The position numbers and the translations under genes were made by a program. The notes below the pieces were generated by a model. The model made no database searches, was not told the DNA's origin, and worked only from the letters and a program-made list of their open reading frames with translations. DNA of 63,990 nucleotides, filler included, from Asterionella formosa (Eukaryota): assembly GCA_002256025.1 (NCBI GenBank). It is 8 parts of 8 records of this genome, joined end to end, with 100 filler letters (N's around TTAATTAATTAA, not from the genome) between each part and the next. Parts side by side here need not be neighbours in the genome. Positions count along the whole stretch, not along the records: positions 40,617 to 48,620 come from NKIB01012341.1; 7 more parts are not named here. One strand, given 5' to 3'. Of this stretch, positions 32,396 to 49,415 are shown one piece after another. The first letter of the stretch is position 1. Each line of letters opens with the position of its first letter.

Positions 32396-32524
32396 TATGG
32401 AATGTGCTANNNNNNNNNNNNNNNNNNNNNNNNNNNNNNNNNNNNNNNNNNNNTTAATTAATTAANNNNNNNNNNNNNNNNNNNNNNNNNNNNNNNNNNN
32501 NNNNNNNNNTATCGCTCAATCAGC

Positions 32525-35500
32525 ATGCCCGCAGCCAAGGAAACGAAGGACGCGGTGGACGATCGCGGCATTCGCTTTGGCACCGAAGTGGCATACGACG
32601 ATGCGTATCAGGATGGCACAGAAGGCTTTCTCGACTCGCTCCCCACTGAAGAAGAAGAGCGCCAGGAACAGGAGGAGTTCTTGGACGAAGGTCGTATCAG
32701 TTTGCATCCTAGTAGCAAGGCAGGTCTAAAGGTGCGTGGATGGAATACTGAGTGTCACCCAGGATGGAATGGATCAACAACTCCAGCATACTCACACATC
32801 AAATCGCAGGCGGAGGATGTGGAAGAGGACCACAATCCATTCAAGGGAAACCAAAACGGATCTGGTCTTATCAATACAAAAATAGCAGACCGAGAGTCCG
32901 ATTATCAAAAGCGACGGAACAACAGATCTGTAAGAGAAGAAGGTATGTCGTTCAAGGATGCCATGCAACATGCGACCCTGGACAAGGAACGCCAGGAATT
33001 GATTGACGAAGTCAAGAAAGATTTGTTGGACGAGGAAGGAAACATTAAACAACAAGAGGAGCCTGAGCGAAGGAGACGACGTTGGGATCAGCCTGTTCAA
33101 ACCGAGTCAGGGAAAGATAATGAGGCAGAAGCCGCCCAAGTTACCGATGGTGAGTCGGTAGCCTCGTCCAAACCATCATCGTCTAGATGGGATGAACAAG
33201 ATGACAAGCCTGCAACAGGACGACGTCGCAAGCGATGGGATGAAACACCAGTAGCACTGTCTGGTGCTACTACTTTTGATGTTTCGGCATCGACACCACT
33301 CATTTCGACTGCCACAGATGCTACACCACGAGTGAGCAGTCAAAAGTGGGACGAGACACCACTTGTAACAGCCGGTTCATCTATCACGGGCACACCAGGA
33401 GTGGAAACTTCCCGTAAACGAAGCCGCTGGGACCAGACCCCTGTCGCATTGGGTACTCCCTCTGTGCCTGGCACTCAAACTCCGCTGACAGGCAATATTA
33501 CAAGGGCACTATTGTTAGAACGAGAAATGGAATCTCGCAATCGCCCTTGGTCGGAAGCAGCACTGGATGCGATTCTTCCATCGGAAGGGTACTTGATTCT
33601 TCGTCCTCCTGCTAACTACATTCCCTTGCGAACCCCGTCTCGCAAGTTGTTGGCTACCCCCACGCCATTGAGTATGACACCTGCTGGATTTCTAATGGAG
33701 GTACCTATTGAACAGCGCACCGACACGTCCATCTCCGAGATTCGTGAAGCTTATGGTATTCCACTGGCTCAAACTGCATCAGAGACTGGTGAAATGGGCA
33801 GTTTACCTTTCATCAAGCCAGAAGACATGCAATACTTTGGTCGCCTATTGGAAGATGCGGACGAAGACAAGATGACTAAGGATGAATCAAACGAACGAAA
33901 GATAATGGCCCTCTTGTTGAAGATCAAGTCTGGTACTCCACCGCAACGCAAGACGGCCATGCGTCAAATTACAGACAAGGCCAGAGCCTTCGGACCAGGA
34001 CCATTATTTAATCAGATTCTTCCGCTTTTGATGAGTCCAACCTTAGAAGATCAAGAACGTCACTTACTAGTCAAGGTAATAGATCGTATCTTGTACAAGC
34101 TCGATGATTTGGTGCGTCCATTTGTGCACCGCATCCTGGTGGTCATTGAACCCCTTCTTATTGACGAGGATTATTATGCCAGAGTTGAAGGTCGCGAAAT
34201 TATCAGTAATCTCGCCAAGGCAGCTGGTCTGGCAACCATGATAGCTACCATGCGACCTGAGATCGATTCCCCAGATGAATATGTCCGCAACACCACCTCT
34301 CGTGCCTTTGCTGTCGTCGCCTCGGCCCTTGGGGTGCCCTCGCTTCTTCCGTTTCTCAAGGCGGTCTGTCAATCTAGGAAATCCTGGCAGGCTCGGCATA
34401 CTGGTATAAAGATTGTCCAGCAAATTGCCTTGTTGATGGGATGTGCTGTCTTGCCGTACTTGCGAGAATTGGTGGATATTGTGAGTCACGGTTTGACAGA
34501 TGATATGCAGAAGGTTCGAACCATAACTGCTTTGACAGTGAGCGCTTTGGCGGAAGCAGCGTATCCCTTTGGTATTGAATCATTTGATTCAATCATTCGG
34601 CCTCTCTGGAAAGGTGCATTAGAGCACCACGGCAAGTCCCTTGCTGCCTTTTTGAAGGCGATTGGCTATGTTATTCCACTGATGGAAGAGTCCTATGCCA
34701 GTCATTATACTCGTTTGGTCATGCCGATTTTGCTTCGTGAATTCCATTCGCCGGATGAAGAAATGAAGAAGATTGTGTTGAAGGTAATTCAGCAATGTGT
34801 AGCCACTGCTGGAGTGGAACCGGAGTACATTCGCACTGACATCTTGCCGGAGTTCTTCCGAAATTTCTGGATTAGACGCATGGCTTTGGATCGTCGAAAT
34901 TATCAACAAGTTGTTGAGACGACCGAAGAGCTCGCAAACAAGGTCGGCAGTTCTGATATTGTCAGTCGTATTGTTGATGACTTGAAGGATGATTCCGAGC
35001 CATACAGACGAATGGTCATGGAAACTATTCAAAAAGTGTTGACCAATCTGGGAGCTGGTAATATTGATGAACGCCTAGAGGAACGTCTCATAGATGGAAT
35101 GCTTTATGCCTTTCAGGAGCAAGCAGTTGATGCCGGCGTTCAAAGCAATCCAGAGAGCCAAATCATGCTTGACGGTTTCGGAACTGTTGTTAATGCTCTT
35201 GGTGAACGATGTAAGCCCTACCTGAAGCAAATTGCTGGAACGATTAAATGGCGCTTGAACAACAAAGCTGCGTCTGTCCGAATGCAAGCTGCTGACCTAA
35301 TCGGACGAATTGCAGTTGTAATGAAAGCCTGTGGAGAAGATCAGCTAATGGGACACTTGGGTGTTGTCCTCTATGAATACCTGGGCGAGGAGTACCCAGA
35401 AGTGTTGGGTTCAATTCTTGGTGCCCTTCGTGCCATTGTAAATGTTATCGGAATGACAAAGATGACGCCACCGATTCAAGATCTCTTGCCGCGTCTGACT

Positions 35501-36490
35501 CCGATTTTGAGAAACAGGCATGAAAAAGTACAAGAAAACTGTATTGACTTGGTAAGTGCAATCGTGTGCCGGCATGCCTTCTTAAATGGACTAGGATCTG
35601 ATGAAATTCTTGTTCTTCCCCCCAACTCCCCTGACTGGTCATTATTGATGCAATCCCTCTCTAACTCTGGTCTTCTTTCCACTTTACAGGTTGGACGAAT
35701 CGCCGACCGTGGTGCAGAGTTTGTGTCGGCCAAGGAGTGGATGCGCATCTGTTTTGAGTTATTGGAAATGCTCAAGGCTCATAAGAAGGCCATCCGTCGT
35801 GCAGCTGTTAGCACATTTGGATACATCGCCAGAGCGATTGGTCCTCAAGATGTTCTCCACACATTGCTCAACAATCTTAAGGTTCAGGATCGACAGATGC
35901 GGGTGTGTACAACAGTTGCAATCGCAATTGTTGCAGAGACCTGCGGTCCATTCACTGTCTTGCCTGCAATTATGAATGAATACCGAGTCCCCGAGCTGAA
36001 TATCCAGAACGGTGTTCTAAAAGCCCTTAGTTTCATGTTTGAATACATTGGAGACATGGGCAAGGATTACATCTACGCTGTTACTCCGTTGCTCGAGGAC
36101 GCATTAATGGATCGCGATCCAGTCCACCGCCAAACTGGGTGCGCCACTGTCAAGCATTTAGCACTTGGGGTAGCGGGTATGGGATGTGAGGACGCATTGA
36201 TCCATTTGTTGAATTTTGTATGGCCAAATATCTTTGAAGAATCTCCACACGTCATTAATGCTGTTCTTGATGCTGTACAGGGGCTGATGGTGTCGCTTGG
36301 ACCTAACGTGATCTTGCAGTATCTTTTGCAAGGATTATACCATCCATCACGCAAAGTGCGTGAATCATTGTGGAAGGTCTACAATATGCTCTACATTTTT
36401 AACTGCGATGCGATGGTAATGGGTTATCCACTGATCGAGGATGAAATTGACAACACCTATGCTCGCACTACACTTGAGCTGTTCATCTAG
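32525..36490 (+). CDS. SF3B1: Splicing factor 3B subunit 1; introns 32732-32809 and 35552-35689
   Basis: RWDETP ULM motifs and HEAT repeats ([53 protein letters not shown]). Both introns have GT-AG ends, and the second interrupts a conserved motif. Confidence 0.98.
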
Positions 36491-39055: not shown

Positions 39056-40112
39056 TTATACTACCCGACTATCTATTGCACCTTGCAAAAAGAGTATGAA
39101 ACCTAACGAAAACGACGAGACAATCCCTGTCGTGACCATATCAGTGTCTTCATATGCTTCCAGCAATAATTCGAAGATCGCAACCCATGCCATGGCACCT
39201 CCGGCAAATCCCAAGCCAACTGGAAGGATTGGAATAAAGTATTGTACAAAGAGATAAGAGGGAACCGCCATAAGTGGCTGCGGGATACTAGACATGATTG
39301 CCCATAGCGCTGCTGTGAGCTTTGATGTCTTCTTTGGAAGGAGTACAACAGCGATTGCCAATCCCTCTGGAATGTTGTGTACTGCCAAACTTGCTGAAAT
39401 GAAGACTCCGAGGTCACTTCCTCGTGATCCACCAAAGCTGACACCAATACCGACACCCTCTGAAAACGAATGCAGGGTCATGACAAAAAAAATCAAAAGG
39501 GCCCTCCGCGCGTCAGCACCTCCTAGTCCACCAACATGGACATCTTCGTACTTTTCCAAAAATTGCTTGGTCCCGAGAATAAAGACTAGTCCAAGCAAGG
39601 CACCGATAGCTGTTCGAACTTCACTGGATACTTGCACATCGCCCTCTTCGCCGAATGTGCATCCTTCGACAAATAATGAGTAGCTAGCACCAATCATCAT
39701 ACCAGCGGCAACAGCTATAAAACGCCCAAATTAATTGGATGCGGTCAGCTACGAAATGCATTCGATTTTCAGATAGTTATTCAATTCCATGTGCAAACTC
39801 ACCATTGGAGATTCCCACCCAGAATTTATCGAAATCGGGTACTAAAACCAAAGGCAAAACTCCCAGACCAGTACTCATGGCAGTAATCCAACCGTAGTAC
39901 CAAACATGCAGCAATGTGGGATCTCCAACAGGCTGAAATGGAACTGGTAAAGTTAGATAGCTCAAAAGTACAAGACCACCCAAAGCAAAGATTGCCCAGG
40001 CGGGTGTCGACACATCGTTGGCGACTGTCACGATCACTCCGTTGTTCGCCGCTTTGCGCTCTACCTCGGCTCCGTTCACTGATTGTATCGAATCCTTATT
40101 GTTCTCTACCAT
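39056..40112 (-). CDS. ZIP family (ZupT/GufA-like) metal transporter; exons 40112-39803, 39714-39056
   Basis: STGLGVLPL, SN|AVAAGMMIGAS, MTLHSFSEGVGIG, LAVHNIPEGLAIA, GFAGGAM. GT-AG intron 39802-39715. Confidence 0.92.
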
Positions 40113-40616
40113 GATGAAACTGTAGAGGTGTATTCGATTTCAGTCGCTATGTAAGTCGCCGCGATGAACCACGAGACGCTTGTTCGTACTAGCTACTGAG
40201 CGGCCACTTCTACTCTCGGAAAGTCAAAAATGTCAGCGTATATTCCATCAACCAACCGACTCAAGCCGTTGTTTCTTAAGTTCAATCAAAGGTATTTGCC
40301 ACTACTACTACAATCTTCGGAACGGTTGTTAAAACGCAGCAAGTTGCATAAAACGCCCCGACACCGTGTCTGAACTTCATCGAGAGGAACGTTAGTTGTA
40401 TTACCTGAGGTAGTCAAGCAAACCTGCGGTTAGCAACGCATGATGGCCAGATGGAGGCACGATACCTGTGACGATTCCTTCGTGTATGCACATTCATACT
40501 GCAAATGCTAGACTAANNNNNNNNNNNNNNNNNNNNNNNNNNNNNNNNNNNNNNNNNNNNTTAATTAATTAANNNNNNNNNNNNNNNNNNNNNNNNNNNN
40601 NNNNNNNNNNNNNNNN

Positions 40617-41032
40617 ATTTCTTTTCAAGCTCTTAACAGATTGCACACGAACATACTGTGCAATGTAGATAATGATTCATCGAAGACATAGTATGATGAC
40701 TTGAACGACAAATGAAGACTTTATCACAAACACTTGTTCCTCTCAACATGGCCGCTTTCTAGTTGTTGCAAGAATCAGAGTGAGGACTGGCGAGGATGAT
40801 GAGCCAAACCACATTACTTTAACTGGTACATTATTCTACCAAGAAATTTAAATAATGTAATCTAAAAGAAACAATACATATAATAATTAAATTTTTCATA
40901 GTCAAAAGGGTTACTATTAAATTACGAGGGCATTTATCAAAATCATTAGATGATATAATGAATTATTATCAGATGATCATAATCCTATGATGCATCACAG
41001 GAATATGATGATTTTTAATTGCAGAAGCAGTC
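40617..41032 (-). mobile_element. DNA transposon copy C (right end only, next to gap)
   Basis: Matches ~2031-2427 and ~61662-62084. Ends ATGATGATTTTTAATTGCAGAAGCAGTC, which corresponds to the terminal inverted repeat. Confidence 0.85.
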
Positions 41033-41871
41033 AGGGTGGATTCTTTTGGGAGAGGGTTGATGACTTTCTCGATATCTGGCTGCTATTTTCTTTGTTGCTG
41101 CTACTAGGATTGTATGATTGCAGGGGGAAAATGATGTTGCTCAGTCCCAAGTCGATGACTTGGAACAATGAACAAGTAGCTATTTCTGATGAAACATGTA
41201 TCCCAGTAGGTACATATATGTAAATTTACATAGTAGACTATGTATCTGTTTCTGCTACTAGCTGACTACCAGGTATGTAATAAACAATCGCGCTCAACGC
41301 ATGCATGTACATACTTACTATCTACTGGCTTGATGTTAGCGGGATGAAAGGCATCTCAATCCAGCTACATTTACATACACTAGTACTATGAATGAGCAAA
41401 AGCCAAGCCCATTTAAGCCTCAGTCATAATACATAGCTGTGAATTTCTATTGGTTTAAAATATGGCTCCCACTAGCAGCATCAGCCACGCCTACCGGTGC
41501 ACCAGTACCGGTAGCTTAATTTTTACAGGTTTACACAAATTTGCCTTATATTGGTGTACTGTGCTCAAAAGTTATCTAGATTAAAATACCGGTTCCTGCT
41601 GGGTCTGAAAATGATAGCATATTTTCTAGTACTAGCTACATATGTAGTAGGACATATGCTGGGACAAACAACGACGTCATGTACCGGTATATTATTTCGA
41701 CGGAATAATGGGGAGAGCTTTTAGGATATTAAATCTCAAGTCTGAGATATATATGAAGAACAAAATGTGATGTACCTGCCCAGGCATCTGAATCCTATGA
41801 ATCTACACATGACAAGTTCTCCATGTGCACCGCCAGTAAACCGGTTAGATATCCATACATAGCTACCAGTA

Positions 41872-42910
41872 GTATGGGGTTGATGATTCATCATTGCTGC
41901 CTTGACCATAATGAACAGATCGGACTCAATGTCTCCACGAAAATTGACAATGAATAATTCCTATTTCGCACATATATCTAGCCTAACATAGACGAGGGAA
42001 TCGTTTTGTTGTCGTCGTTTGCTCAATTTTGAAGCTACAATCAAAATAGAGACATCATTGAGTCCATAGTAGTTAGCTTGATAACTCATGCTAATAATAA
42101 TTTCAATCAACTGTACAGTTTGTTGAGAAACATTGAGAAAATTAAATCACGGAGAGGCATCGCCACAAGCAAGTAAGAAACTATCCTATAAAAATGCCAC
42201 TACCTTGCTCACTCACTCCAACTTTCACAAGAAAGCATGAATAACTAGACCTGAAAACAATGGACCTGGCAACATTGTTTTGAGTCACTTTCAAAAGATT
42301 AACCAACCAAGGTCTCACACTTGCCACACAGCATGCATACACATATTGCCTACAAGTAGAACCGCAAATTCCGAAAACAGTGCAAGTTCCAACTGAGAGT
42401 AAATTCCAAAGGTCTGACAGCCTTCTTGCATGCCCAACTTGACATCCGCATGAAAAATTCAACAATATGCTAAAGAGACGTTGGATACATTTTTCATCGA
42501 GATGCTTTTGGATTACAAATTATTAAGTAAATATTATGGTACGCTATTGAAAATGAACTCGACATTTGTGGAGGTTGTGAAGTCGCTCTTGGCCCCCCAG
42601 AGGGCCTTAGACCTGCTTGTTGTCTGCCTCACCACCCGAAACCCAAGTGACTACATAAACAAAGCAGGTGGAAAATGCGGAAATCGAACCCGCCACCTCG
42701 GAAGGTGAGCTAGCTAACCAAGCAACTAGCTAAGCTATTCCACTAGATGCTTTTGGATTATATATGCAGGACATTGCCAGCATGCATACCAGCACTGGGT
42801 TCCCCTACACTTTTTGCATTAAAATGTCCGAAAATTCAATATGAGTTAGTCCAGAGAATACGCGATTACTTTTTCTGACTAAATATCTAGCAAATCAATC
42901 ATTTTTTATT
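41872..42910. repeat. Dispersed non-coding repeat (segments X 41872-42090 and Y 42808-42910)
   Basis: X matches 55403-55680 (e.g. ATTGACAATGAA[T/C]AATTCCTATTTCGCAC, TTAGCTTGATAACT). Y matches 55040-55140 (ACTTTTTGCAT..TGACTAAAT..TAGCAAATCAAT). Confidence 0.75.
42516..42744 (-). mobile_element. tRNA-derived SINE (229 bp) with 16-bp target-site duplication
   Basis: tRNA-like head 42743-42668 (GTGGAAT..TTTCCAC acceptor-like stem, A box TAGCTTAGCTAG, B box GGTTCGATTTCC), a unique body and an AT-rich tail. Flanked by the exact direct repeat AGATGCTTTTGGATTA at 42500-42515 and 42745-42760. Confidence 0.8.
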
Positions 42911-43597
42911 TCTACTTTCAATGTAAGTTTGTAATTGCTATTTCTGTTAAGATTTCAATCAATGGATACAGTGACGCAAAACAACGACGAAGATGCATAG
43001 AAAGGAATTACATAATACACAAACAAGCTAACAATATTGTATACAGTATACATACATACAAAGCGGTAATAGCAAGCACACCAGCATAAATGACTAAAAT
43101 TGGTTCTATATTACTTTTTATTGAATGGAGCTAATGTATTTGTTACAATTCGCATTGAACAAACAGGTTGCTGAAAATTCTTACGGTGGCTGTCTGAACT
43201 TTGTTTCATGTACTGAAATTTTTTGCGAACAAGAGCAATTTAAAATTTAAGAAACAGTGAGAATTTATAGAGAAAGGTCGATAGCGAGAAGGCTAGCAAC
43301 GATAGATAAAAGTACGTACTAGTACCACAACAGGTAAGTTTTACGTAAGGAGATTGTCAGACGGGAAGGAGCACGAGGAAGCTTTTTTTAACACGCATCA
43401 CTCATGCACGAAAAACAATTTGAAATGTGAGGAGGACAAAAATATGCAGCGCTACATACACATAGACAAAACTAATGTAATTATTAAAATGAAGTGCGAT
43501 TTACATCAGACCGCAATAGTAGTAATCATTGTTGAACAAGGAAATCCCACCTTCGAACAACTTAACTTAAAATATATATAGCCAGCATATACAAAAG

Positions 43598-44972
43598 ATG
43601 CTACTACCAGAGGAGCCAGATCAAGAGGGGGCGAACGACATCGTGGAGGCCACTAGTGGCGCAGTAATCCAAATGAGCGACTATACTTACGAGTTGGACG
43701 ATGCCTCCATTGCGATATACCCTGCCTCTCCACGAGGAAGTTCGAAGCTCTTGAGAGTTAACGAAAATGGAGAAGTATCCCACTTCTCTAGTTTCTCAGA
43801 GTCGTTTGTATCCTTGGCGAAAGGCGCTCATGTTGTCTTTAACGAAAGCAGAGTCCTCGACGCTAGATTATTCGTCAAAACGAATGGAGATCAAAAAGTT
43901 GAAATGATGATTCTTGACATGGGAGACATTGATATAACAGCGCCGTGCAATGAGACTTTTCTCACAGTCATGCTCCGAACGGATCAAGTGCAAGCAGGCG
44001 ATGTTTTTGACGACGCAATTGGTGGCATAGGGAATATTGAAATCGCCAAGGTCAACGGGTAAGTGCAGCAACTAATGTCCTTTTCTTCCTGCTGATACAT
44101 TTCTTTTCTCAAGGCATTATTTTTTCTGTCACAGAATCTGGGAGGAAGATGTCAAAAGTGATGGAAACGGCACCGAATGCGTGATACGAATCTTGGAAAC
44201 AATGTCGTTAGAGGAGTACCTTGCGGTGGCTGGCAATGTGCCGATCCCACCATACTTTCATCGTGACGCTGAGATTAGCGACAAGGAATCCTACAATAAT
44301 ATTTATGCAGCAACCGGTGGATCGGTCGCGGCTCCTACAGCAGGACTGCACTTTACTGACCAAGTGTTGGCCGACCTTGGAGCCGCAAACTGTAGCTTCC
44401 TTTCCCTTCATGTGGGAGCCGGAACATTCAAACCAGTCATAGTGTTGGATGCACGTGACCACACCATGCACGCCGAAACATTTTCAGTCAGTGTGTTGGA
44501 GATGAAACGCATTGTTGCTGTCATGGTAGTGGGAAAGCCTTTGATTGCAGTAGGAACCACGTCGTCGAGAACATTGGAAAGTCTGTATTGGTGTGGAGTC
44601 AAACGCCTTAATGGTATGGAAATTGACACTATGAATCTTTCTCTTGGCCAGTTTGAATGGATGTCATTGATGGCTCTCAAGCCTACAGTTTCTGCTTCAA
44701 GAGCATTTCAATCTCTCTTGGAAGACTTGAAGGACCACGACGTCGTGTGTGGCAAGACATGCCTTATGATTGTGCCTGGATCGTACGAATTCAAGGTAGT
44801 CGATCATCTTGTGACCAACTTTCATGCCCCAGATTCGACGCTAATGCTACTGGTATCTGCCTTTCTCAAGAGCGGTGAAAAGATAAAGTTGATATACGAG
44901 GAGGCACAGCGAAACGGATACAAGTTCCTTTCCTACGGCGACGTGTGCATGTTGACACGCCCAAGATGCTGA
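43598..44972 (+). CDS. queA: S-adenosylmethionine:tRNA ribosyltransferase-isomerase (QueA); exons 43598-44058, 44135-44972
   Basis: QueA motifs: DYTYEL..IAIYPASPRGSSKLL, VFNESRVLDARL, GNVPIPPYF, GSVAAPTAGLHFT, LHVGAGTFKPV, AVGTTSSRTLES, LVTNFHAPDSTL, YKFLSYGD. The GT-AG intron 44059-44134 (76 nt) restores the frame. Confidence 0.93.
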
Positions 44973-46227
44973 TAGTACTTGCTACTGTGTATCTGGAGTA
45001 TGCAATCTAAATTGTTTGGAGTCATGTTAGTAAAGTACCTTTCATGACAGAGCTGGACTCAGTATTTTATTTTCAAATGAAGGGTCGTCCCTAGATTCGC
45101 CCCGTAATGATAAAACATAGCTGTGGCATGGTAGTGCTTTAGGTCGAGACTATACTCTTGATTATTCCCGTTCTTTGTTAGATGTTGAAATTGGGACGAA
45201 TGCCGAGTGACGAGGTACCTGGAGTAGGTACCCTGGACTCTACTTCTGCTGTGATGCATTTTAGTCAGTCTGAGGATAATGTAATACAGGATGTTACATC
45301 ATCTGCCTCCCTGCGATGGTCGTGGTCTAACGCTCAGCAATCTTAACACCCATCATCGTATAAAGAAGGCAGAGTCTAAGAGAAGAATGATACCTACTAC
45401 TGTAGAAATGTGTGAAGGCGGGCCAAAAAGTGATGTGCTTNNNNNNNNNNNNNNNNNNNNNNNNNNNNNNNNNNNNNNNNNNNNNNNNNNNNNNNNNNNN
45501 NNNNNNNNNNNNNNNNNNNNNNNNNNNNNNNNNNNNNNNNNNNNNNNNNNNNNNNNNNNNNNNNNNNNNNNNNNNNNNNNNNNNNNNNNNNNNNNNNNNN
45601 NNNNNNNNNNNNNNNNNNNNNNNNNNNNNNNNNNNNNNNNNNNNNNNNNNNNNNNNNNNNNNNNNNNNNNNNNNNNNNNNNNNNNNNNNNNNNNNNNNNN
45701 NNNNNNNNNNNNNNNNNNNNNNNNNNNNNNNNNNNNNNNNNNNNNNNNNNNNNNNNNNNNNNNNNNNNNNNNNNNNNNNNNNNNNNNNNNNNNNNNNNNN
45801 NNNNNNNNNNNNNNNNNNNNNNNNNNNNNNNNNNNNNNNNNNNNNNNNNNNNNNNNNNNNNNNNNNNNNNNNNNNNNNNNNNNNNNNNNNNNNNNNNNNN
45901 NNNNNNNNNNNNNNNNNNNNNNNNNNNNNNNNATGTATGTAATATGTCATACTCGACGAAAAATTCACCGGCGCACCAGCCCCACAATGACCATACGTAT
46001 GTTCTTCATGTTCCTGATATATGATATATAAATATATACCGGTATATGGTAGGAGGAACAAGAAACGAGGGGGAGGAAGAAAGAGCAACAAGCGACGTGA
46101 CAAATCTCGCGTGCTGAGAGCGAACAGAGCTCAACACACCAACCACTGCCCAACAGAACAGAACAGAACAGTCCAAGGACAAGATCAGTGCTGGTGTTGT
46201 TTTGACAAACAAACCATTGTTTTCACC

Positions 46228-47544
46228 ATGACGACTCTACTAATAGTCACTCACCACCAGCGCCAATATTATTACAACCTCGTATCGCTCGCCGCAACGA
46301 CTCGTCGGTTCACGAGCACGCAACGAGTCGCCCCAATACCGTCCCATTCTGTGGCGGGCGATGATGACAACACCCTCCGCCGACCCATTTATGTCGCTGC
46401 GACTCGACAACACGTCGGGAAGACGTCAGTCAGCTTGGCCTTGCTCAGCGGCCTACAGAAACGGTTCGATCAAGTTGGATTCATCAAACCTGTGGGACAG
46501 CAATCCTTGACTGTCATGGAAGACGGTCACCCCCTAGAGGTAGACAAGGACGTGGCGCTAGTGAAGGGACACTTCCATTTGGACCACTTGCCCTATAAGT
46601 ACATGTCTCCCGTATTGATCCCGAAAGGATACACGAAGAAGTATCTAGATGGCCAGATTAGCGATGACGCGCAACAAGAAATGGTGCAGCAAGCGTACTC
46701 GGAAATTTCGAGCAGGAGCGATGTGGTGTTGTGCGAAGGGACAGGACACTGTGCTGTCGGGAGTATTGTCAATATCAACAACGCCAAAGTCGCCAGCTGG
46801 CTGGGGGCGGACATGGTCCTTGTTGCCAATGGTGGGTTGGGAAGTGCCTACGATGAATTAGAGCTTAACCGTGTCTTGTGCCACTACCACGGGGTCAACA
46901 TTGCCGGTGTTGTTATCAACAAGGTCCAGGCGGATAAATATGATCAGACCGTGCAGTATTTGGGAAATGCACTGGCACGGTTAAACATTCCACTTTTGGG
47001 GGTCATTCCTGATCGACCATTTCTGGGATGTCCAGCGATTGCTGATCTGGAACGGCTCTTTGGTTCACCCCTACTTAGTGGACGAGAACATCGACTCAGA
47101 CATTATACTGTGAAGGACCTGAACTTGGTGGCCACTTCGTTGAGTGTCTTTTTAGAGAATCTGCGAGAAAAACCAAATCGAACCATGTATGTTTGTCATG
47201 CTTCGAGAAATGATATCCTCCTTGGGTTTCTTGGAGAGGCACTCAGGCGCAAGCAGGTTGGTGTGCCCTTTGAGGCTGCTTTGGTAGTTTGTGAAGGACA
47301 CTTGCTTGAGCCTCAAGTAATTGACATGTTGGACTTGGAGGGGGCTCCTCCTATTTTGGTAGTGCCTAATCCCACAAGCGAGGCCATGGCGTTGATACAC
47401 TCATATACGCCTAAACTCAATGTGGACGATACGACGAGAGTGGATACCACGGTACGACATTACGAACCCTATATTGATTTTGAATTGTTGTTGAAACGAA
47501 CTGGAAATGCGAGAAAGTCACCAGCAACAGAAGTACCAAACTGA
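46228..47544 (+). CDS. AAA_26 (BioD-like P-loop) + DRTGG-like protein, corresponding to the phosphate acetyltransferase N-terminal region without the catalytic PTA domain
   Basis: IYVAATRQHVGKTSVSL, VGFIKPVGQ, VVLCEGTG, NAKVASWLG, GVVINKV, LGVIP, HASRNDILLG. R/T/S-rich N-terminal presequence. Stop immediately after the DRTGG-like region. Confidence 0.82.
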   Translation: MTTLLIVTHHQRQYYYNLVSLAATTRRFTSTQRVAPIPSHSVAGDDDNTLRRPIYVAATRQHVGKTSVSLALLSGLQKRFDQVGFIKPVGQQSLTVMEDGHPLEVDKDVALVKGHFHLDHLPYKYMSPVLIPKGYTKKYLDGQISDDAQQEMVQQAYSEISSRSDVVLCEGTGHCAVGSIVNINNAKVASWLGADMVLVANGGLGSAYDELELNRVLCHYHGVNIAGVVINKVQADKYDQTVQYLGNALARLNIPLLGVIPDRPFLGCPAIADLERLFGSPLLSGREHRLRHYTVKDLNLVATSLSVFLENLREKPNRTMYVCHASRNDILLGFLGEALRRKQVGVPFEAALVVCEGHLLEPQVIDMLDLEGAPPILVVPNPTSEAMALIHSYTPKLNVDDTTRVDTTVRHYEPYIDFELLLKRTGNARKSPATEVPN

Positions 47545-47750: not shown

Positions 47751-48620
47751 TCAATTCATCTGCCCCGCTCGCCCAAAATTAGCTCGTCCTCCACCATCGG
47801 CTCCATTGGGTTGTTCCTTTGGTGTACCCCCTTGTTCATGTGTCCGATTCCATATTTCCAAGTAATACAAAAGCGTACTCAAATCTTGCACTCGATTTCT
47901 AGGTAAGGGATTCATGGATCCCAATTCCGCAAAAGGTCCTTCTTCGACAAACCCAGCTGCCAACAACAGTCCCCGAGCAGGCGTGTTCCATACCTGGTGA
48001 TAAAACGTTTTCCCCGCAATACGAATTTGACGATATTTGGATTCCTTCGGATGACGAACAATGTTGGTCAAATATTTGATCAAGGTAGTAGCGTACATGT
48101 AATCTAGTCTTGACATTTGTTGAAAGCACCAAGTTACGGCTTGTTGTGTTGTTTCCATGTCCAATGGAAAGACAGGATCGTGAATGGAGCACATCAATTC
48201 CGTCGTGGAGGGCCGTTGCAAAGCAAAGGTGTGTCTCCCCAGTGCTGGGTCATCTGGATCTGTCGTTGGCACTGCATCTGTCGTTGGGATAACACGGTAT
48301 GGGATAAAATGTAACACGAGTTGTCCCGTGTCCTTACATCTAAAGGTCCATGGATGACCAATCCATGTCGTTTGATTGAAGACACTTCCATTCTTGATGG
48401 TACCTCGAAGAATTTCTTTGCCCTTGTAGTCGACCCAAAATACATCAACGGTCCGGTGCATGGAGTTCAGAATCTCCAGCTTTAGTGGCACGTGACCACG
48501 TTCCGAACGTGGAATGAAAGAAGGGGCTACTTCTTGACCATTCGCCTTGCCAATGGTGTACACGCGATAGAGACTAGCTTCCACTTCGTACCAACTCGTG
48601 AACCCATGCAGTCCAGGATG
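47751..48620 (-). CDS. VHL-beta-domain + PUB-domain protein (5' end in gap)
   Basis: VHL-like region RSE..LEILNSMHRTVDVFWVDYKGKE..TTWIGHPWTFR and PUB-like region TLIKYLTNIVRHPKESKYRQIRI..ARGLLLAAGF. Confidence 0.8.
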   Translation of the reverse strand, partial: HPGLHGFTSWYEVEASLYRVYTIGKANGQEVAPSFIPRSERGHVPLKLEILNSMHRTVDVFWVDYKGKEILRGTIKNGSVFNQTTWIGHPWTFRCKDTGQLVLHFIPYRVIPTTDAVPTTDPDDPALGRHTFALQRPSTTELMCSIHDPVFPLDMETTQQAVTWCFQQMSRLDYMYATTLIKYLTNIVRHPKESKYRQIRIAGKTFYHQVWNTPARGLLLAAGFVEEGPFAELGSMNPLPRNRVQDLSTLLYYLEIWNRTHEQGGTPKEQPNGADGGGRANFGRAGQMN

Positions 48621-49415
48621 NNNNNNNNNNNNNNNNNNNNNNNNNNNNNNNNNNNNNNNNNNNNTTAATTAATTAANNNNNNNNNNNNNNNNNNNNNNNN
48701 NNNNNNNNNNNNNNNNNNNNAGTACAAAATGAATGTTGGCGAGGAGGACCGTCCGCGCCAGTTTTCTTAACGAAAAGCAGCTGCTGGAATGAAAGGAACA
48801 AAATATCACATTCATGGTAAAATGAAATTATTGTTATTGTTATTGTTGTAGTTTTTGTCGTCTTTTCTGCTATCATGGTTGTGTTCTCGTTGTCGTTACC
48901 GCTGTCCCTGCTGTTTCTGCTTTCATTTTTCTTGTTCTTATTCTATTGTTCTTTCGTTGTGTTTACTGTGGCTGTATACCCTTCTCTTCCTTGGTGTTCC
49001 TCGCCCTGCGTTTGAACTTGAACATGCATTGTTTGATATGGAATGTCAAAAGGTTTTGTTTGTTAAAAACCAGCCATCATCTGACTCTTTGAATTTTGTT
49101 CTTCGCTTCCAGATCATAACAAGAAGGACTCTGTTGTGGGCCGGCTCCTCTGGAAGAAACAGGCAGGCATTTTTTGTTTCTCCTTGCTTGTCATCACAGA
49201 AAGGATGCATCTGAAAGTTCGAGAAATTATGGTAAGCAGTTAATATTTTGGGAAATGGAAACAGGTCTTTTGTCACATTGCTGTTGTTGCTCTGCACCGT
49301 TGCTCGTTTTCTTTTTCTTGTGTTCGGAACTATTTTTGATTGCTGTTGTAGTTCCTTTACCTCCATTTTGTTCTTCCTCTTACTTGTGCCATTTGGAATT
49401 GGAAAAGTGGTCAGT

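Follow-up and report, generated by a model that had tools for sequence, protein, structure and literature searches.

To our knowledge, reviews describe eukaryotes as salvaging finished queuine only. What, then, is a gene for QueA, an enzyme of bacterial queuosine (Q) synthesis, doing in the diatom Asterionella formosa, where would its product act, and how old is its presence there? The locus lies in a stretch of 63,990 nucleotides, filler included, of A. formosa DNA (assembly GCA_002256025.1), hereafter the window, to which all coordinates refer unless a locus name precedes them. QueA converts preQ1-tRNA into epoxyqueuosine-tRNA with SAM, and either QueG or QueH reduces the product (accessible parts of PMC11570991 and PMC10639084). 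Direct RNA sequencing can tell Q, preQ1 and preQ0 apart (accessible part of PMC10639084).

An earlier note on this DNA held that eukaryotes do not use QueA. This view is challenged by a 2025 study of Chloropicon (accessible part of PMC12301720), which predicts a mitochondrial route consisting of a bacterial-like TGT, QueA, QueG and YhhQ, with red-algal orthologs, so that a eukaryotic nuclear QueA is itself already in print. As far as the accessible part of that paper goes, its main text mentions QueH 0 times and does not describe fusions, and its supplementary tree could include diatom sequences. A literature search, mostly outside subscription journals, brought up no work dealing with QueA in diatoms, QueH in eukaryotes or QueA fusions, and found in print neither a eukaryote-wide QueA clade, nor a QueH version, nor a cytosolic form of the pathway; queuosine is also unmentioned in the main text of bioRxiv 10.1101/2020.01.24.918219.

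A spliced nuclear gene

Two open frames (43571-44062 and 44076-44972) match the front and the back of the QueA profile PF02547, and removal of positions 44059-44134 joins the exons into an open 432-aa protein. Exon 1 (43598-44058, + strand) encodes residues 1-153 plus two bases of Gly154, the intron (44059-44134, +) is a 76-nt GT-AG spliceosomal intron in phase 2 (GTAAGT...CACAG), and exon 2 (44135-44972, +) carries the motifs PIPPY, GSVAAPTAGLHFT, LHVGAGTF, HxMHxE, VGTTSxRTLE, TNFH and FLSYGD. The GC content of the intron is 37%, against 47% for the coding sequence. An exact 76-nt skip with GT..AG ends is present in RNA contigs of three of the four runs, from two studies, and bears out the canonical intron that the earlier note had proposed; in the fourth run, which comes from a more divergent strain, the intron is still present, and the contigs may be unspliced RNA or DNA. 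Among the 17 other frame-keeping GT-AG pairs considered, none is supported by RNA. The spliced product exists in the protein database (P0001, 99% identical), and four of the eight members of its protein cluster have 432 residues and the same start.

The A. formosa genome contains one QueA locus, on a contig of about 4.8 kb, with SF3B1 about 7 kb upstream on the same scaffold. Since the intron is spliced and the scaffold bears this eukaryotic gene, contamination is excluded, as had been argued from the intron alone: queA is a true nuclear, transcribed, spliced and single-copy diatom gene, and it is likely functional.

Several other features surround it. SF3B1 occupies 32462-36490 (+) as one open frame of 1342 codons, and a ZIP zinc transporter gene lies at 39056-40139 (-). 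Positions 46228-47544 (+) encode a 438-aa protein with AAA_26 and DRTGG domains, which resembles phosphate acetyltransferase in its N-terminal part but lacks the catalytic domain, and in a frame at 47751-48668 (-) a VHL beta domain precedes a PUB domain. Within 43110-43354, stretches of 34-43 nt match other RNA contigs that diverge from the window, in all four runs and with some matches deep, which possibly reflects an organellar DNA fragment or a repeat. An Rfam scan of 40700-45400 gave no match.

The QueA protein

Both exons pass the PF02547 cut-off of 25 bits alone (55.7 and 208.5 bits). In contrast, P0001 falls below the NCBIfam equivalog cut-offs of NF001140 (285.6 vs 324) and TIGR00113 (256.9 vs 267.45), which the Symbiodinium relative P0440 passes; the match of P0001 is split by an insert, and the low scores presumably result from this insert together with divergence. 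The insert (44586-44747, +; about 43 residues) follows RTLESL, is absent from the bacterial structures 1yy3, 1vky and 1wdi, with which the alignment is otherwise end to end, and is common to Bacteroidota-type QueA according to the tree annotation. The RTLESLYW segment had been suspected of being Bacteroidetes-like, and this long shared insert agrees with that impression.

Of 63 columns at least 95% invariant in the 168 rows outside the eukaryotic clade described below, 60 are kept, the exceptions being Q to N, T to N and R to K. At residues 207-209 (44292-44300, +), YNN replaces a near-invariant bacterial YQT, a change found throughout the diatom clade (N in 76/77 and 72/77 rows). The description of a full-length QueA with all hallmark motifs is thus right as to length and has to be corrected as to motifs. 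The structure model is of high confidence (pLDDT 94, pTM 0.93) and retrieves only four Foldseek matches at E <= 0.001, all of them QueA chains. Compared with bacterial QueA (EC 2.4.99.17, PF02547), the diatom protein has the same fold and nearly all invariant residues, while differing in its nuclear, intron-bearing gene, its Bacteroidota-type insert, YNN for YQT, and its NCBIfam scores. It likely converts preQ1 at tRNA position 34 to epoxyqueuosine, with the YNN change and the sub-cut-off scores leaving room for an altered specificity.

An old eukaryotic family with recurrent fusions

The family search gave, among the best 120 of 8000 scored matches, named sequences that include Cyclotella and Fragilariopsis. 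The tree set comprised 388 QueA domains with at least 78% profile coverage, reduced to 285 at 85% identity. In the FastTree phylogeny of these 285 rows, one clade of 116 rows (support 0.997) holds all the eukaryotes named in this section and encloses a diatom clade of 77 rows; in an IQ-TREE analysis of a 61-row subset, the two clades receive 100/99 and 100/100, respectively. The larger clade comprises diatoms, Symbiodinium, Chrysochromulina, Pycnococcus and a choanoflagellate, with labels that rest on a few named anchors and in a set of rows without an identified Chloropicon or Galdieria QueA. It is placed within a long-insert group (95/97) together with Paludibacteraceae, Flavobacteriales and a Lepagella cluster, and IQ-TREE does not resolve its sister group or donor.

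The intron position of queA recurs in five of six related loci, three of which are fused, and the sixth is intronless there. A horizontal transfer particular to this diatom, of the kind that the earlier note had suggested, is not supported for a gene that belongs to a clade spanning eukaryotes and has its intron where other diatom genes have theirs: the family is old and spread across many single-celled eukaryotes rather than restricted to diatoms.

Fusions, which the earlier note does not mention, were surveyed among longer proteins (best 120 of 634 matches). An NMT1/THI5-like, a FolD-like and a PCD-like domain precede QueA in a Bacillariaceae species, Amphora, Pseudo-nitzschia and Seminavis; QueA is fused to QueH in Stephanoeca, Chrysochromulina, Pycnococcus and Pseudoscourfieldia; and Symbiodinium carries all five domains in one protein (NMT1-, FolD- and PCD-like, QueA and QueH). 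The diatom clade contains 33 four-domain fusions, 14 partial fusions and 30 rows with QueA alone, some of these being gene-calling fragments, and among the other 39 rows of the eukaryotic clade, QueH is present in 16 and FolD-PCD in 13. The fusions with QueH tie the two last steps together within the eukaryotic clade.

The A. formosa gene stands alone. Its fused partner domains are absent from the window, where a search for NMT1, FolD, PCD or QueH remnants gave none at E < 0.06. Its nearest tree row is nevertheless a fusion (P0173), with an A. formosa end branch of 0.27, and besides the single A. formosa locus there is a second genomic locus (L069) that stands alone and has no presequence. The simplest history would be that eukaryotes took up a long-insert bacterial QueA once, in the distant past, and that early fusion and repeated fission followed; transfer from eukaryote to eukaryote could also have taken place. 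A. formosa queA is then likely a fission product that has lost the NMT1-, FolD- and PCD-like domains together with a mitochondrial presequence.

What do the additional domains do? By Pfam, PDB and fold, they match ThiY/THI5 (NMT1), FolD and pterin-4a-carbinolamine dehydratase. In a structure model of a fusion, all domains model well behind a disordered leader of 35 residues, and columns at least 90% conserved in 53 aligned fusions make up 25% of NMT1, 25% of FolD, 13% of PCD and 30% of QueA. The FolD-like domain has the FolD fold and keeps the DxDG and GRS motifs, with SWFxK in 47/53 rows. It differs from ordinary FolD in having Met-Trp in place of Gln-Leu (61/63 rows), the Gln of which we take to be needed for cyclohydrolase activity. 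Matches of the NMT1-like domain are weak: the nearest is the solute-binding protein 4nmy (E 4e-7), followed by ThiY (3ix1, E 0.03), and by eye the domain is without the Lys and His of yeast Thi5, which are presumably catalytic. The three families all bind aminopyrimidine-type rings, which suggests, speculatively, a salvage step that generates preQ1. The diatom NMT1 Phatr3_J33535 (accessible part of PMC9544697) differs by eye from the fused NMT1-like domain in its motif.

Bacterial sources of the fused module were sought and set aside, since NMT1-type matches were weak, occurring in 6 of 201 genomes of the G001 phylum (best E 2e-17), and the FolD found in plasmid records is an ordinary one at about 36%; an ESM Atlas search returned generic NMT1 clusters only. 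Other architectures were also encountered. Fusions of QueA with EPSP synthase (AroA; P0247, P0260 and relatives, about 800-860 aa) form one group of Bacteroidota type, in which one cluster names Lepagella, and three long proteins (P0228, P0230 and P0232) contain two QueA stretches each, possibly as tandem fusions or assembly chimeras.

Queuosine partner genes in the A. formosa genome

Among the partner genes, whose presence in the genome the earlier note had left to be established, QueH was found (189.8 bits, intact and covered by RNA), together with three genes of the TGT family (QTRT1, QTRT2 and a bacterial-like TGT) and QNG1. The TGT labels derive from pocket motifs compared with those in the accessible part of PMC12301720, and that of QTRT2 from a weak, degenerate match: QTRT1 has DDV and GGLAGGE, and the bacterial-like TGT (L004) has DEL and GGSLG and carries an N-terminal extension. 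The start of the latter (L004:805-900) lies beside an assembly gap and shows a hydrophobic stretch and, after it, an AA-FSP motif. By eye, we take this arrangement to resemble a diatom plastid-targeting signal.

No match was obtained in the 15,436-contig assembly for QueG, QueC, QueE or QueF, nor, in the same fragmented assembly, for the transporters YhhQ and QueT. NMT1, FolD and PCD domains of the fusion type are likewise missing from the 15,436 contigs. Since P0173 shares 46-90% identity in these domains with 22 other diatom fusions, this failure to detect them is meaningful. The genome does contain one FolD (L034; 176 bits vs 371-444 for the fusion domains) and three PCD genes (5-26 bits vs 90-108), all of which are ordinary ones.

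QueH is widespread in diatoms (among the best 120 of 7994 matches), and the diatom TNATSRWK motif is present in 40/42 fused and 100/120 stand-alone QueH proteins. The closest QueH sequences in plasmid records are beta/gammaproteobacterial (59.8% identity to Ralstonia and 58.5% to Klebsiella), and in a donor search covering these records and five genomes, none of the three Bacteroidota genomes matched.

Cellular location

Location was assessed by a charge heuristic rather than by a trained predictor. QueA begins with an acidic extension of 24 residues (43598-43669, +), which is not a presequence: its first 21 residues include six acidic and no basic ones, and the structure model shows a helix at residues 12-18. 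The earlier note had seen no targeting signal here, which holds, and had left the choice between a cytosolic enzyme and hidden upstream exons, which now leans to the cytosol. The 5' leader (43527-43597, +) is transcribed, with RNA contigs that begin at 43527 and 43548 and pass unbroken through an in-frame TAA (43568-43570), and a codon listing gives no ATG between 43496 and 43597; it is this RNA running through a stop upstream of the ATG that tips the question. No upstream exon or joint was seen in the RNA contigs, from which rare isoforms are lost, and the interval from the stop to the ATG contains three AG dinucleotides. The extension is possibly, on weak grounds, a relic of the PCD-like last helix of the fusion (shuffle p = 0.02, with 2/8 stand-alone proteins below 0.05).

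Similarly, no presequence is found by the charge heuristic at the first Met of QueH. Its RNA contigs start at L007:1277-1288 in all four runs without a joint, so that no presequence exon is seen; the contigs carry no strand information and run together with a convergent neighbouring gene. Over L007:1277-2600, RNA continues from queH into this neighbour, a membrane-protein gene (SERINC-like by eye) with far higher coverage, a pattern that suggests an overlap of the two 3' ends.

The lack of a presequence on both enzymes favours a cytosolic over an organellar route, and QueA and QueH probably act in the cytosol. Most members of the QueA family look mitochondrial by the same heuristic, which counts against this reading: 19 of 27 diatom fusions starting with Met have basic N-termini, one has an acidic or neutral one and seven have short ones; 19/20 fusions with an extension of at least 15 residues look mitochondrial by the simple charge rule; and 10 of 23 stand-alone diatom QueA proteins have basic N-termini.

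A candidate preQ1 route and its alternatives

Gene structure, transcription, fold, partner genes and the absence of a presequence from both enzymes are consistent with a pathway to which we give about an even chance, and which is read here from the gene complement. QTRT1/QTRT2 would insert externally acquired preQ1 into cytosolic tRNA, QueA would transfer the ribosyl part of SAM to preQ1-tRNA and rearrange it to form epoxyqueuosine, and the B12-independent QueH would reduce the latter to queuosine. Such a route would widen the range of usable precursors and rescue tRNAs stuck at preQ1. Its first step is modelled on human TGT, which inserts preQ1 in vitro, where it is not displaced by guanine (accessible part of PMC8136771); preQ1 and queuine also compete for mammalian tRNA (accessible part of the review PMC13294055). 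Two points count against this pathway. With QTRT1/2 and QNG1 present, Q would already result from the salvage of queuine, and the searches for QueC, QueE, QueF, YhhQ and QueT revealed neither a source nor an importer of preQ1. Associated bacteria may feed the pathway, as the earlier note suggested, although neither of the known precursor transporters YhhQ and QueT was found in the fragmented assembly; the accessible part of PMC8136771 states that there was at the time no evidence for physiological preQ1 in eukaryotic cells.

How does this candidate compare with known systems? All three genes of eukaryotic queuine salvage (QTRT1, QTRT2 and QNG1) are present, and QueA and QueH add on-tRNA steps that this salvage does not need. 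The logic is that of bacterial preQ1 salvage (tgt and queA with queG or queH, without queC/D/E/F), with late genes kept and the de novo genes QueC, QueE and QueF not found. In contrast to the bacterial systems, YhhQ and QueT were not found, the inserting enzyme is likely a eukaryotic TGT, and the two late enzymes differ in affinity, QueH being beta/gammaproteobacterial-like (plasmid records) and QueA of Bacteroidota type. A nuclear QueA, a bacterial-like TGT, QTRT1/2, QNG1 and a proposed preQ1 salvage are shared with Chloropicon, whereas A. formosa has QueH as its reductase, searches for QueG and YhhQ gave no match, and the heuristic assigns no presequence to either QueA or QueH. The A. formosa system thus appears as a QueH-based, probably cytosolic form of the pathway predicted for green-algal mitochondria.

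The same chemistry might instead take place in an organelle, an alternative that we consider rather unlikely: the bacterial-like TGT would insert preQ1 into the tRNA of mitochondria or plastids, which QueA and QueH would reach by a non-canonical route or as a rare isoform, along the lines of the Chloropicon proposal with QueG. The presence of this TGT (L004; DEL, GGSLG) with an N-terminal extension, the mitochondrial look of most relatives with an extension (charge rule), and the published Chloropicon model (accessible part of PMC12301720) speak for it. However, no upstream exon is seen in RNA for either queA or queH, the N-terminus of QueA is acidic, and the TGT start, beside an assembly gap, looks plastid-like by eye and does not match a mitochondrial QueA. 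Moreover, algal bacterial-like TGTs derive from a Chlamydia-type TGT (accessible part of PMC12301720), and the Chlamydia enzyme is described as queuine-only (accessible part of PMC11570991), which makes the bacterial-like TGT a poorer partner for QueA.

A broader scenario, in our opinion unlikely, concerns the relatives. An ancient mitochondrial multi-enzyme of many protist lineages, composed of an NMT1/ThiY-like binder, an altered FolD-like oxidoreductase, a PCD-like domain, QueA and QueH, would make preQ1 from another deazaguanine (preQ0 or a queuine breakdown product being candidate inputs) without QueF or QueL, and complete Q on tRNA. The diatom would have lost the front module and relocated its QueA and QueH to the cytosol for the repair of preQ1-tRNA.

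Might the eukaryotic QueA clade have changed its substrate or product and serve, instead of plain maturation of preQ1 to Q, a pathway that its NMT1-, FolD- and PCD-like fusion partners define? These domains are nearly as conserved as QueA itself (25%, 25% and 13% vs 30% of columns), the FolD-like domain has MW for QL in 61/63 rows, and diatoms have YNN for YQT. This idea, which we regard as improbable, is opposed by the widespread fusion to QueH, an enzyme that acts on what QueA produces, and by the intactness of A. formosa QueA without the extra domains. Even more doubtful is the view of queA as a decaying remnant, still transcribed and without a substrate after the loss of partner domains and presequence. 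Neither a preQ1 source or transporter nor the partner domains were found in the genome, as this view would have it. In contrast, both the reading frame and the motifs have stayed intact, fused relatives have end branches at least as long as that of A. formosa queA (0.27), QueH is likewise intact and transcribed, and L069 is also stand-alone and presequence-less. Finally, a bacterial contaminant or a recent transfer private to A. formosa, which the short contig (about 4.8 kb) flanked by assembly gaps might evoke, is refuted beyond reasonable doubt by the splice joint, the intron position shared by 5/6 related loci, the 100/100 nesting in the diatom clade and SF3B1 on the scaffold.

Implications

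Judged from this locus and its relatives, the late bacterial Q steps are far more widespread than supposed and would rely on the B12-independent QueH; they extend to diatoms, dinoflagellates, haptophytes, prasinophyte-type green algae and a choanoflagellate. Through guilt by association, the conserved fusion points strongly to a FolD-like enzyme that is so far uncharacterised, and a QueA-QueH pair, if it does work in the cytosol on eukaryotic tRNA, would offer a tool for the direct conversion of preQ1-tRNA into Q-tRNA. If the pathway is active, preQ1 would be a micronutrient for major plankton groups, rather than the competitor that it is reported to be in mammalian cells.
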